Assembly (NCBI GenBank): GCA_963791815.1
Contig: CAWBTT010000004.1
Span: forward strand, 130,215 to 194,214
Direction: 5' to 3'
DNA from: an uncultured Candidatus Micrarchaeota archaeon
GTDB lineage: Archaea; Micrarchaeota; Micrarchaeia; Anstonellales; Bilamarchaeaceae
Length of the DNA: 64,000 bases
In this document: piece after piece, positions 1,733 through 44,808 of the stretch
Layout: every line of letters begins with the position of its first letter
How positions within the stretch are numbered: position 1 is the first letter of the stretch
Program-made: the position numbers and the translations under genes
Notes under the pieces: model-generated
Told to the model about the DNA's origin: nothing
The model's input: only the letters and a program-made list of their open reading frames with translations
Databases searched by the model: none

Positions 1733-2416
1733 ATGGCAGAAATAGCTAAAGCAAAAGAAGAGAAGAAAGATGATGTTCGTACGGGTGGAGATGAGAAGAC
1801 TTCTGGTAGGAAGACACTCATGTCCAGATTTAGAAGGATGAAGGGACTTGTCGCAGGACTTGCGCTCGTAACCGGCATGTCACTCGCAGCAGCACAGGGA
1901 TGCGGCTCAGATGATAATGGAGTAGTTCCTTTGCCAGATGCCAGCCTTGATGCAGGCCCAGATTCTGATACTAACACTGATGGCGGAGATGGAGGAGGCC
2001 CAACAGACGCAGGACCTGACACAGACAGTGGTCCAGACGTTGACGCAGGCGACTTGGACTCTGGCCTTGATGGTGGAGAAACTGATTCAGGCACTGGTGA
2101 TGGAGGTTCTGACGCAGGACCAGCAACATGTTCAGGCGCAACAACTGGCGGTGTATTAGGAACACCATTCTATCCAGGAATTCCAGTAACAGTAGGCGGA
2201 TATGCAATTACTGTAACCGGTGAATCTTCAGACGGAGTTTATGTAGACATTGACTGCGGCTCTGACAGCGCATCTGTAGCAGTTGGCTTTAACTGCCCAG
2301 AGCAGACTAACGTTACAATCCCAGTCACAGCAGATGGAATGGAGATTAGGATTTGGAATGCAAGCAGCAGCTCATTCGTAGCAAACATGAATGTAACTGT
2401 TGCAGTTTCACCTTAG
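1733..2416 (+). CDS. secreted or lipid-anchored Asp/Gly/Pro-rich protein
   Basis: RFRRMKGLVAGLALVTGMSLAAAQGC is a basic n-region, hydrophobic core and lipobox-like Cys. It is followed by a D/G/P/T low-complexity linker and a C-terminal beta-rich domain. The ORF opens at TTG 1712; ATG 1733 or ATG 1820 are more likely starts. Confidence 0.5.
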   Translation: MAEIAKAKEEKKDDVRTGGDEKTSGRKTLMSRFRRMKGLVAGLALVTGMSLAAAQGCGSDDNGVVPLPDASLDAGPDSDTNTDGGDGGGPTDAGPDTDSGPDVDAGDLDSGLDGGETDSGTGDGGSDAGPATCSGATTGGVLGTPFYPGIPVTVGGYAITVTGESSDGVYVDIDCGSDSASVAVGFNCPEQTNVTIPVTADGMEIRIWNASSSSFVANMNVTVAVSP

Positions 2417-2808
2417 TCTTTCAAGCCAAGTACTTCTTTTGCTTTTTCCATATCTTTTTCTGTAGGTCGGATTGCGACTTCAGTGAAGTCGTTCTTCCTA
2501 CTGACGATATAGAGGCTTTCGAGGTTGACACCGCGGTTTGCAAGCTTGCGGGTCATCTTTGCAAGTTCACCTGGACGGTTATTCATTTTGAAAACAAGAG
2601 TATCTGCTTCCTCGACTTTGACGTTTGAGAGTCTTGAGAGGGATTTTAGGGATGTCGAAACATCGCCAGTAATGATTCTGAATACTGCTTTTCCTTCAGC
2701 ACCATATGCGGAAATGGCTTCTATGTTGACTCCTGTCGAACCAAGCGCTTCGGCTACCTTGGCAAGAGAACCCACATCATTGTCTGCTATCACTAATATC
2801 TCTTTCAT
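2413..2808 (-). CDS. tandem ACT-domain protein
   Basis: Two repeats of the ACT pattern (ILVIADNDVGSLAKVAEALGSTGVNIEAI and LVFKMNNRPGELAKMTRKLANRGVNLESL). Start placed at MKEILV (ATG 2808). Confidence 0.6.
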   Translation of the reverse strand: MKEILVIADNDVGSLAKVAEALGSTGVNIEAISAYGAEGKAVFRIITGDVSTSLKSLSRLSNVKVEEADTLVFKMNNRPGELAKMTRKLANRGVNLESLYIVSRKNDFTEVAIRPTEKDMEKAKEVLGLKD

Positions 2809-19906: not shown

Positions 19907-20600
19907 TTCCTCAACATATTGCTTTCATCCCGGACGGAAATTAGAAAAAACCGTAAACCGGAGATGGAGCGAGCAGAAGGGAATTCCACGGAAAGAAGGC
20001 TACAAGATTGGGATTGAGCATATTGGGGATGTTCTCAAATGGTGCAAAGAGAAGGATGTCCGCATGGTGACCATGTGGGGATTCAGCACAGAAAATTTCA
20101 AAAGGGATTCGGAGGAGATTGAGGGACTCTTCAATCTGTTCAAGAAAAACCTTCTTGAGGGCCTTTCGACAAAGGAGGAAGAAGGGAAGAAAATCAAGGT
20201 AAGGTTCCTTGGCAGGACACATCTTTTTCCAAAAGACATTGTCGCTCTTTTCAAGAAAATCGAGGAAAAGACAAAGGACAACGGACCTTTTCAACTTAAT
20301 TTGCTTCTCTCATATGGGGGCCGCGGCGAAATAGTCGACGCGGTAAATGACATAATCAAGGAAGGCGCTCAGGAAGTGGATGAGGACATGATAGGAGAGC
20401 ACCTATACACCAAGGAGATGCCTGATCCTGATTTGGTCATCCGGACTTCCGGTGAGCAGAGGCTTTCGGGGCTTCTTCCGTGGCAGACCTGCTACAGCGA
20501 ATTTTATTTCTCAAAGAAACTGTGGCCGGACTTTTCCAAAGAGGATTTTGAAGAGGCTTTAGAAGAATACGCAAGAAGGAAAAGAAGGTTCGGGCGCTAG
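19891..20600 (+). CDS. uppS: undecaprenyl (cis-prenyl) diphosphate synthase, coding sequence interrupted by a 17-nt BHB element: join(19891..19939,19957..20600)
   Basis: MDEKIVPQHIAFIPDGN then TAG. The rest (RRWSEQKGIPRKEGYKIGIEH...MVTMWGFSTENF...RTSGEQRLSGLLPWQ) lies in another frame. Removing 19940-19956 gives PDGNRRW and a 230-aa product. Confidence 0.8.
19940..19956 (+). other. candidate 17-nt bulge-helix-bulge intron within uppS mRNA
   Basis: Helix CCGG 19930-33 with CCGG 19958-61. Bulge AAA 19955-57. 4-bp helix ACGG 19934-37 with CCGT 19951-54. Bulge AAA 19938-40. TT/AA closes a 6-nt loop. Cuts after the 2nd bulge nucleotide restore the frame. Confidence 0.6.
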
Positions 20601-20824: not shown

Positions 20825-20889
20825 CAGAATCCCATTTGTCAGGATGAGGTTTTAGAATGTTTTGATACTACCTATATGCTGCATTTTGA

Positions 20890-21029
20890 GCCGCAGTAGC
20901 TCAGTGGGAGAGCACTCCAGGTCCTTTTTTGTAATTAAAAAAAGAACCGGTGAAGCTGAAGTCTCACTGGGGGTTTAGTTCCCAGTTTCGGAAACGGAGG
21001 GGTCGCTAGTTCAAATCTGGCCTGCGGCA
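20890..21029 (+). tRNA. tRNA-Phe (GAA) with two introns: exons 20890..20918, 20955..20961, 20994..21029
   Basis: The joined exons give GCCGCAGTAGCTCAGTGGGAGAGCACTCC-GCTGAAG-ACGGAGGGGTCGCTAGTTCAAATCTGGCCTGCGGCA. This is a 72-nt cloverleaf with anticodon arm CTCCG/CTGAAGA/CGGAG. Both introns lie in BHB-type structures. Confidence 0.85.
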
Positions 21030-21035
21030 TTTTTT
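21030..21035 (+). terminator. oligo-T tract immediately after tRNA-Phe
   Basis: A T6 run directly follows the discriminator base. Oligo-T is the usual archaeal termination signal. Confidence 0.4.
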
Positions 21036-21058
21036 CTAATAATCGGACAGTGATAAAC

Positions 21059-22063
21059 ATGAAACTGCATATACCGAGAGACTACAAACCGTTGATAGGA
21101 GTAAGGAAGACAGAGGCAGCAATACCGAAGATTCAAAGATTTTTCCAGGCCAGGCTATCTGAGAATCTGAATCTTGAGAGGGCGTCTGCTCCAATGTTCG
21201 TGCGGGCAGGAACTGGAATCAACGACGACTTGAACGGGGTAGAGCAGAAAGTCTCTTTTGATGTAAAGGATGAGAAAGGCACAGTCGCAGAGGTAGTGAA
21301 CTCACTTGCCAAGTGGAAGAGAATGGCACTTGCCAGATACGGCTACTCGCATGGCGAGGGCATCTGGACAGACATGAACGCAATCAGGCCGGACGAAGAA
21401 CTTGACAACCTGCACTCACTTTATGTTGACCAGTGGGACTGGGAGCGCGTAATTTCACCGCAAGAAAGAACAAAAGAGTTCCTCATGGGCGTTGTTGGAA
21501 AGATATATGACGCAATCAGAAAAGCAGAAAGGATGATATGGCGCGAATACGATGTAGCACAGGAACTTCCTGAAGATATCAAGTTTGTCACAACCAGAGA
21601 GCTTGAGGGAATGCACCCTGAGCTTTCAAGAAAAGAAAGGGAGGACGCCATAGCAAAGCAGCACCTTGCTGTTTTCCTGATGGAAATAGGCTGGCCGCTC
21701 AAGGATGGAGAGTCCCACGATGGCCGTGCACCAGATTATGATGACTGGTCTCTTAACGGAGACATATTGGTTTGGAACGATGTTCTGCAAAGAGCCTTCG
21801 AATTATCCTCAATGGGAATCCGAGTAGATACGGATTCCCTGCTCAGCCAGCTAAGGCACGCTGGAGCAGAAGACAGACTGAAACTCCAGTTCCACAAGAT
21901 GCTGATGGGAGGCGAGCTTCCGCTTTCAGTTGGCGGTGGAATAGGACAGTCAAGGCTTTGCATGTATCTTCTTAGGAAAGCCCATATAGGAGAGGTTCAG
22001 GCCAGCATCTGGCCAGAAGAGATGCACTCGGAACTAAGGAAGAGCGGAATCCATCTTTTATGA
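21059..22063 (+). CDS. asnA: aspartate-ammonia ligase (asparagine synthetase A)
   Basis: SLAKWKR..., IRPDEE...LHSLYVDQWDWERV, DILVWN...AFELSSMGIRVD and GGGIGQSRL closely track E. coli AsnA as recalled. Confidence 0.85.
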   Translation: MKLHIPRDYKPLIGVRKTEAAIPKIQRFFQARLSENLNLERASAPMFVRAGTGINDDLNGVEQKVSFDVKDEKGTVAEVVNSLAKWKRMALARYGYSHGEGIWTDMNAIRPDEELDNLHSLYVDQWDWERVISPQERTKEFLMGVVGKIYDAIRKAERMIWREYDVAQELPEDIKFVTTRELEGMHPELSRKEREDAIAKQHLAVFLMEIGWPLKDGESHDGRAPDYDDWSLNGDILVWNDVLQRAFELSSMGIRVDTDSLLSQLRHAGAEDRLKLQFHKMLMGGELPLSVGGGIGQSRLCMYLLRKAHIGEVQASIWPEEMHSELRKSGIHLL

Positions 22064-27967: not shown

Positions 27968-28067
27968 GGGCCCGTGGCTTAACCTGGATATAGCGAGTGG
28001 CTTCGGAAGCCTTCTCCAAATCGCTGGAGAAACCACTAGGTTAGGGGTTCGAATCCCCTCGGGCCCG
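27968..28067 (+). tRNA. tRNA-Arg (TCG) with canonical 25-nt intron (28007..28031)
   Basis: GGGCCCG...AGTGG CTTCGG | intron | A CCACT AGGTT AGGGGTTCGAATCCCCT CGGGCCC G. BHB: CTTC pairs with GGAG; the bulges are GG|A and AA|A. Confidence 0.9.
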
Positions 28068-44541: not shown

Positions 44542-44699
44542 TAGTAGTTGTTTTGTTCAGACGAGAAATATAGGAAATTGTTTGCAAAATACTAATAGAA
44601 CTAGTAAAATTAGTAGGTAATAGTAGTTGTTTTGTTCAGACGAGAAATATAGGAAATTGTTTGCAAAATACTAATAGAACTAGTAAAATTAGTAGGTAT
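44542..44699. repeat. perfect tandem direct repeat, 2 x 79 bp
   Basis: 44542-44619 is identical to 44621-44698 (78 of 78). Unit: tagtagttgttttgttcagacgagaaatataggaaattgtttgcaaaatactaatagaactagtaaaattagtaggta. The second copy ends exactly at the tRNA-Val 3' end. Confidence 0.9.
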
Positions 44700-44808
44700 G
44701 GGCCCGCCCAGGATCGAACTGGGGATCTTTCGCGGTCTTAAAGAAGAATAAGTATCAACGAATTCTTCCGATGTAAGGCGAACGTCTTAACCACTCGACT
44801 ACAGGCCC
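44699..44808 (-). tRNA. tRNA-Val (TAC) with canonical 37-nt intron (44735..44771)
   Basis: Reverse complement is GGGCCTGTAGTCGAGTGGTTAAGACGTTCGC CTTACA | intron | C GCGAA AGATC CCCAGTTCGATCCTGGG CGGGCCC A. BHB: CTTA pairs with TAAG; the outer helix has 7 Watson-Crick pairs plus one G-U pair. Confidence 0.9.

Follow-up and report, generated by a model that had tools for sequence, protein, structure and literature searches.

Two BHB introns around a 7-nt anticodon micro-exon in the tRNA-Phe(GAA) gene of a Micrarchaeota-type archaeon

Studies have shown that the archaeal lineages with multi-intron tRNA genes include ARMAN-1 and ARMAN-2, and that the maximum, three introns per gene, is reached in the Thermoproteales (PMC4033280, PMC4090602). 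The multi-intron tRNAs of ARMAN-2 were published in 2011, one of them with a 6-nt micro-exon, and the disruption of these genes was linked to the epsilon2 endonuclease (Fujishima et al., PMC3239211). This enzyme is a homodimer, which cleaves strict and relaxed BHB motifs in vitro (PMC3239211, PMC12397907), including relaxed motifs without an outer helix (PMC3239211). Thermoproteales and other Crenarchaeota also carry multi-intron tRNA genes alongside a broad-specificity endonuclease (PMC4033280, PMC4090602), but their enzyme is a heterotetrameric (alpha-beta)2 type with a Crenarchaea-specific loop, they belong to TACK and not to DPANN, and their intron families transpose between tRNA genes. 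The pre-tRNA-Glu of Methanopyrus kandleri is another multi-intron archaeal pre-tRNA, and its cleavage by the organism's own endonuclease has been tested in vitro; M. kandleri is, however, a euryarchaeon whose (alpha-beta)2 enzyme has no specific loop and is inefficient on non-canonical introns (PMC5829648). In many DPANN archaea the tRNA set has gaps, since gene prediction overlooks disrupted genes (Kaneta et al. 2018, PMC5829648).

In this study, we analysed a tRNA locus within a stretch of 64,000 nt (the window) from an uncultured Candidatus Micrarchaeota archaeon. We are highly confident that this locus is a working tRNA-Phe(GAA) gene of a Micrarchaeota-type (ARMAN-like, DPANN) archaeon, and apparently its sole copy. 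The locus resembles the ARMAN-2 case in the broad lineage, in the three-unit epsilon2 endonuclease and in the two BHB introns only a few bases apart, which leave a micro-exon between them (6 nt there, 7 nt here). It differs in that the ARMAN-2 pair with the 6-nt micro-exon lies in the T-loop, whereas here introns at positions 30/31 and 37/38 flank the anticodon of a tRNA-Phe and the micro-exon bears that anticodon; the organism also belongs to a different family, with an EndA about 50% identical to that of ARMAN-2. The locus thus extends a known kind, of which it is a clear but expected example. A description of this pair of positions in tRNA-Phe with an anticodon micro-exon was not found in the article texts that were compared.

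The coordinates of the gene, its motifs and its neighbours are collected in Table 1. The original prediction had read the locus as a tRNA split by two removable segments, and every coordinate, helix, bulge and tRNA position that it gave was found in the sequence.

Table 1. Features of the tRNA-Phe(GAA) locus and its surroundings in the window (a slash within a bulge marks the splice site)
Feature	Position	Strand	Remarks
uppS, C-terminal part	20064-20600	+	Gene just upstream; synteny with tRNA-Phe kept in most relatives, proteins 60-81% identical
TATA-box-like element TTTTAGAATG	20850-20859	+	About 31-40 nt upstream of mature 5' end; putative promoter
tRNA-Phe(GAA) gene	20890-21029	+	140 nt; three exons, two introns
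Exon 1	20890-20918	+	tRNA positions 1-30: acceptor 5' strand, D arm, first 4 nt of anticodon stem (CTCC); from Rfam alignment, sequence and orthologue parsing
Motif 1 central helix	20913-16 / 20949-52		CACT/GGTG, 4 of 4 pairs; bulges CC/A and AA/G
Intron 1	20919-20954	+	36 nt, non-canonical position 30/31; from sequence and orthologues
Intron 1 hairpin	20920-30 / 20938-48		10 pairs and one C/A mismatch; intron-side helix of motif 1
Micro-exon GCTGAAG	20955-20961	+	7 nt, tRNA positions 31-37, anticodon GAA at 34-36
Motif 2 central helix	20956-59 / 20988-91		CTGA/TCGG, 4 of 4 pairs including one G-U; bulges AG/T and AA/A
Intron 2	20962-20993	+	32 nt, canonical position 37/38; from sequence and orthologues
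Motif 2 intron-side hairpin	20966-71 / 20981-86		6 bp
Exon 3	20994-21029	+	tRNA positions 38-73: A38, 3' anticodon stem CGGAG, variable loop, T arm, acceptor 3' strand, A73; from Rfam alignment and sequence
T6 run	21030-21035	+	Directly after the discriminator; likely archaeal transcription terminator
Downstream gene	21050-22063	+	337-aa protein, by eye aspartate-ammonia ligase-like (AsnA type); beside tRNA-Phe in only 1 of 19 compared relatives' loci (G017)
Further intron-containing tRNA gene	27968-28067	+	100 nt by Rfam
Further intron-containing tRNA gene	44699-44808	-	110 nt by Rfam

The 5' segment supplies the acceptor strand GCCGCAG, the D arm GCTC/AGTGGGA/GAGC, A26 and the CTCC of positions 27-30, and the 3' segment supplies A38, CGGAG, the variable loop GGGTC, the T arm GCTAG/TTCAAAT/CTGGC, the acceptor strand CTGCGGC and A73. 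After removal of both introns, these segments and the micro-exon gave a 72-nt cloverleaf tRNA-Phe(GAA) with the 7-nt loop CUGAAGA. A73 and G20 are identity elements of tRNA-Phe; the former lies at 21029 and the latter within the D-loop AGUGGGA, so that the product has the GAA in a 7-nt loop, A73, G20 and a fit to the tRNA model that are expected of a tRNA-Phe. The match to Rfam RF00005 was 45.1 bits (gathering threshold 29 bits) over model positions 1-71, with E=2.2e-6 for the whole window, and the alignment placed a 77-nt insert where the model has 9 positions, leaving 68 surplus nt, which equals 36+32. No CCA is encoded at the 3' end of the gene. Each splice site is flanked by two different bases, which leaves only one possible placement of the junctions once the product is known.

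The product itself was established from orthologues. Orthologues of the tRNA-Phe gene were collected within the order, both from other genera and families and from the genus itself, where 38 of its 40 genomes yielded the gene; a search with the 3' exon and the downstream flank had located the 3' exon in 36 of the 40. Within the genus, the gene is intronless and 72-73 nt long in three genomes (G004, G053 and G008), carries the 37/38 intron alone in 10, a D-loop and a 37/38 intron in one (G003), a 37/38 and a T-loop intron in one (G011), and introns at both 30/31 and 37/38, always around GCTGAAG, in 23 of the 40, three of which also have a T-loop intron; these states cover 38 of the 40 genomes. 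The intronless orthologues differed from the predicted product solely by compensatory stem pairs, such as 28U-42A changed to 28A-42U, and in one of them (L146) two such pairs were the only differences from the joined exons. In these genes the micro-exon is contiguous with both neighbouring exons, and in the orthologues with the 37/38 intron alone it is contiguous with exon 1, one locus (L013) having the identical CTCCGCTGAAG. The perfect CTCCG/CGGAG anticodon arm of Phe(GAA) that had been predicted on joining the exons is therefore what the intronless orthologues contain, compensatory pairs apart, and the predicted 7-nt micro-exon with the anticodon proved invariant in all two-intron orthologues. 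An exact search for the 30/31 pattern matched 42 of 176 genomes of the order, with 0 matches for the reversed pattern as control; by family, the counts were 40/98 in its own family, 1/1 in family f5 and 0/42 in the sister family f6. Intron 1 without intron 2 was found, with the same exon sequences, in G153, G157, G158 and a Nitrososphaerales MAG.

A BHB intron was defined by a 4-bp central helix with a 3-nt bulge at either end, the bulges lying on opposite strands and each containing a splice site, and by one or more outer helices adjoining the core (two in the strict hBHBh' form, one in the relaxed hBH or HBh' form). Both introns have such a core and both are relaxed in their outer helices; their excision at the predicted sites gives a canonical tRNA, and with seven exon bases between them they make the locus a multi-intron tRNA gene. 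In motif 1, only two pairs are possible in the exon-side helix, both invariant, which makes the motif hBH-type. For the covariation analysis, 23 orthologues were aligned in a fixed register as edited sequences with the internal loop cut out. A row consisted of exon positions 23-30, the 12 bases at the start and the 18 at the end of the intron, and the micro-exon. In this alignment, 93% of the motif 1 cells were paired, compared with 32-48% when the partners were slid by 1-3 columns. Changes on both sides were seen in 13 of the 17 pairs, and none of 500 shuffles (0/500) attained the observed covariation score. Pairing reached 100% of cells in the central helix and 89% in the intron helix, whose 11 pairs all covary. 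Over all parsed orthologue loci with intron 1, its central helix had 4 of 4 pairs in 46 of 46. Its variants (CACU/GGUG, CACA/UGUG, CAUU/GAUG and, in another genus, CACU/AGUG) follow the changes of the anticodon stem among orthologues. These results indicate, at the level of covarying sequence, that the structure of motif 1 is conserved, and they agree with the helix, bulges and mismatched 10-bp intron helix originally proposed for intron 1.

Motif 2 was likewise present in the sequence as it had been proposed, with its CTGA/TCGG helix, both bulges and a relaxed outer helix. On the intron side, its hairpin is shifted out of the canonical register, which makes the motif relaxed; if the 6-bp hairpin forms, the 5' site is a loop of about 6 nt and not a clean 3-nt bulge. 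The exon-side helix is the anticodon stem itself, once intron 1 is gone or looped out. Among orthologues the loop bases CUGA are invariant, while the intron partner is UCGG, UCAG, UUGG, GCAG or others, and usually 3-4 of the 4 pairs are retained.

Standard gene finders handled the locus poorly. With default settings ARAGORN missed the gene. With the -i option, which allows introns, an interrupted tRNA was called at the locus, but as Pro(GGG) with a single 47-nt intron in place of the two-intron tRNA-Phe. We regard a tRNA-Pro(GGG) with one 47-nt intron at position 31 as having next to no chance of being right: beyond this program output, its product would be 93 nt long and a poor fit to a Pro tRNA, the two-intron solution is the only one that restores the CTCCG/CGGAG stem and the CUGAAGA loop, and the reading is refuted by the intronless orthologues, which have the same arms and are plain 72-74-nt tRNA-Phe(GAA) genes. 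In these genomes an essential tRNA is thus missed or mislabelled by standard tRNA finders. Only 29 tRNA genes genome-wide passed the Rfam threshold, at least 10 of them interrupted; introns therefore probably conceal many further tRNAs.

The assembly has 1.47 Mb in 5 contigs and is 88% complete. In this assembly, a second tRNA-Phe was absent among 31 Rfam hits, 38 ARAGORN hits and the BLAST matches of the locus, and none turned up when YUGAAR loops on 5-bp stems were scanned for. An uninterrupted second tRNA-Phe gene, which the original prediction had named, together with a silent present locus, as a case against itself, was accordingly not found within the 88% that is assembled. A working tRNA-Phe in the missing 12% would leave room for the present locus to be a decaying or silent pseudogene with insertions, and one relative (G055) does have two tRNA-Phe versions on different contigs. 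We consider a pseudogene very improbable, because in more than 40 species the exons are invariant or have compensatory pair changes only, because both motif helices are kept by covariation, and because nearly all relatives have a single tRNA-Phe locus, in most of them in the interrupted form. The surroundings of the gene are also conserved. Many orthologues have TTTTAGAATG at the same distance upstream and others a ATTATAAA-type box there, and T-runs follow the discriminator in nearly all orthologous genes; judging from these promoter-like and terminator-like elements, the tRNA-Phe locus is probably expressed.

The original prediction had linked such multi-intron tRNAs to lineages with broad-specificity endonucleases and had proposed that the type of the enzyme be identified in the genome. 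A 389-aa endonuclease is encoded about 49 kb upstream of the window (G000:C4:80219-81385). It matched the ARMAN-2 EndA (PDB 4FZ2) over the full length with about 50% identity (phmmer, E=3.3e-131; residues 5-389 on residues 8-387 of the 4FZ2 chain), and Pfam recognised in it an N-terminal domain and two stretches of the catalytic domain. The protein is thus a single polypeptide of about 390 aa with the three units alphaN, alpha and betaC of the epsilon2 type. Studies of the ARMAN-2 enzyme have assigned Y236, H251 and K282 to the catalytic triad, R275 and W384 to RNA binding, and K161 to an ARMAN-specific loop that confers broad specificity (PMC3488258); all six residues are conserved, as Y233, H248, K279, R272, W386 and K158 of the present protein. 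On the strength of the endonuclease match, the organism is assigned to the Micrarchaeota-type DPANN archaea. Of the 40 genus genomes, 38 encode the three-unit enzyme, as do 77 of the 81 sampled across the order, including species with an intronless tRNA-Phe. The association of the epsilon2 endonuclease with tRNA genes that are heavily disrupted, known from ARMAN-2, thereby extends to a whole order. RtcB (555 bits) and an archaeal CCA-adding enzyme are also encoded in the genome. Together with the intronless and single-intron orthologues and the covariation, the presence of the epsilon2-type endonuclease and RtcB supports the core reading of the locus as a real tRNA-Phe(GAA) gene with BHB introns at 30/31 and 37/38 and the anticodon on a 7-nt micro-exon. 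The same genome thus encodes the machinery that a tRNA-type intron in the uppS mRNA would need.

A second endonuclease-like protein of 162 aa is encoded outside the window (G000:C3:379511-379993, minus strand; L002:1459-1947, minus strand). It stands alone, matches Pfam PF01974 with E=9e-11, and has His and Thr at the positions of the catalytic Tyr and His of Methanocaldococcus jannaschii EndA. It was present in 22 of 22 sampled genomes of the organism's own family, in each of which the full three-unit enzyme also occurs, in 13 of 19 genomes of family f9, and patchily elsewhere. We speculated that this protein may be an unrecognised accessory subunit.

On the basis of these elements, we propose the following course of maturation. 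A precursor of about 140 nt would be transcribed from the TATA-like box about 35 nt upstream to the T6 run after A73 and would carry two independent BHB introns. Intron 1 would present a 3-4-3 core whose intron-side helix, with 10 bp, is strong and whose exon-side helix is nearly absent, and its motif would form at the cost of the upper part of the anticodon stem; for intron 2, the usual core would involve the anticodon-loop bases 32-35. The three-unit epsilon2-type endonuclease would cut in each 3-nt bulge, RtcB would ligate exon 1, the 7-nt micro-exon and exon 3, and the CCA-adding enzyme would complete the 72-nt tRNA. The unconstrained MFE fold of the precursor recovered neither motif, and that of the mature tRNA also lacked the cloverleaf; the precursor fold being uninformative, explicit conformers were compared instead. 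The conformer with both cores had -40.2 kcal/mol, against -41.7 kcal/mol for the one in which the anticodon stem is complete, motif 2 is formed and the hairpin of intron 1 stands as an insert.

These conformers bear on the order of the two splicing events. The original prediction had held that nucleotides of the micro-exon take part in both motifs and that splicing must therefore be ordered. In its strict form, this would mean an obligatory order imposed by motifs that overlap on the micro-exon, either with intron 1 first, so that the anticodon stem forms and completes motif 2, or the reverse. By inspection, the formation of motif 1 does take bases 27-28 into its central helix and 29-31 into its bulges, which blocks the anticodon stem, and the cores lie only a 3-nt bulge apart, so that two endonuclease dimers could hardly bind together. 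However, no micro-exon base is needed by both cores: G31 belongs to the 3' bulge of motif 1, C32-A35 to the helix of motif 2 and A36-G37 to its 5' bulge. The two conformers are also of about equal stability, and the epsilon2 enzyme accepts relaxed motifs without an outer helix (PMC3239211). Relatives carry either intron alone with the same exons (intron 1 in the four genomes named above, intron 2 in at least 10 genus genomes), so that both half-spliced intermediates correspond to natural substrates, and the claim that sharing of the micro-exon implies ordered splicing proved too strong. We believe that an obligatory order is unlikely. A preferred order would still be expected, since with motif 1 formed the bases 27-31 are unavailable for the anticodon stem and motif 2 is left without its exon-side helix, and one enzyme is probably bound at a time. 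We therefore consider an order of splicing possible but not required, and do not regard it as fixed. The more than 40 orthologues with 0, 1, 2 or 3 introns are ready substrates and natural controls for the substrate rules of the enzyme and for the splicing order.

The number of introns per orthologue ranges from 0 to 3 over four sites (D-loop, 30/31, 37/38 and T-loop), and the states differ between sister species. On a tree of 38 endonuclease sequences, which stands in roughly for the species tree and has many unsupported forks, the presence of the 30/31 intron needs 10 changes; for the two-intron state, about 5 changes are required even if only the well-supported branches are counted. G004 without intron and G007 with the 37/38 intron alone are sisters with colinear flanks and 100% identical exons, and G047 (37/38 alone) and G041 (three introns) are sisters on the endonuclease tree. 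We tentatively suggest, as one possible reading of this pattern and of the occupied 30/31 site in a distant Nitrososphaerales genome, that the tRNA-Phe locus of this Micrarchaeota family might be a hot spot of rapid BHB intron turnover. If true, tRNA-type introns would have been gained repeatedly at particular sites and precisely lost again, and the orthologues would form a natural series in which the mobility of such introns could be studied. In contrast to the transposing intron families of Crenarchaeota, no paralogous copies of either intron were found in this genome by BLAST, which gave low-complexity chance matches only and thus no sign of intron transposition. A C/D-box guide RNA in the introns was considered and dropped, the C box (RUGAUGA) being absent, by eye, from the introns of this genome.

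A clean deletion of both introns in G053 was rejected, because its intronless gene is inverted relative to the flanks and adjoins an extra 2-kb gene, and because these flanks have only 84-88% identity to those of G005. The gene beside the inverted tRNA-Phe (L211, G053:C98, 910-2766, plus strand) encodes a 618-aa isopropylmalate/homocitrate-synthase-like protein and is absent at this place in G005 and G020.

The 30/31 site is also used outside the order. Public genomes were scanned with the pattern GAGCA-N{25,55}-TGAAGCTGAAG, which gave at least 120 matches, mostly chance bacterial ones, the pattern being too loose. Among the matches listed, the only true tRNA-Phe was that of the Nitrososphaerales MAG (L028, JASHPO010000124.1, about 2400-2500, minus strand), and a candidate orthologue in Bathyarchaeia (L091) was discarded as a chance match. 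In the Nitrososphaerales gene, a tRNA-Phe(GAA), a 25-nt intron lies at exactly this 30/31 site, and its motif is laid out as here, with the central helix CAUC/GGUG, the bulges CG/A and AA/G and a 5-bp intron hairpin. This gene differs from the present locus in that it has no 37/38 intron, hence no micro-exon, and in that it belongs to a distant phylum, which has been reported with an alpha2-beta2-type enzyme (PMC4090602). The shared site may be either an old shared intron site or the result of independent insertion at a favoured site.

Further arrangements were seen among the relatives. G145 has two near-identical two-intron copies of tRNA-Phe. The two versions in G055 lie at G055:C130:2660-2956 and G055:C17:10341-10432; one has the 37/38 intron alone, and the other has the 30/31 intron on a contig that ends inside the gene. 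Either a mixed bin or a true duplicate is involved. T-loop introns of 28-150 nt occur in the tRNA-Phe of many genomes, and G003 has the D-loop intron; loci with such further introns are L023 (G003), L011, L015, L163, L164, L165, L166, L214, L215 and L225-L228. Several tRNA-Phe genes have three introns, for example those of G019, G006, G041, G028, G138 and G139.
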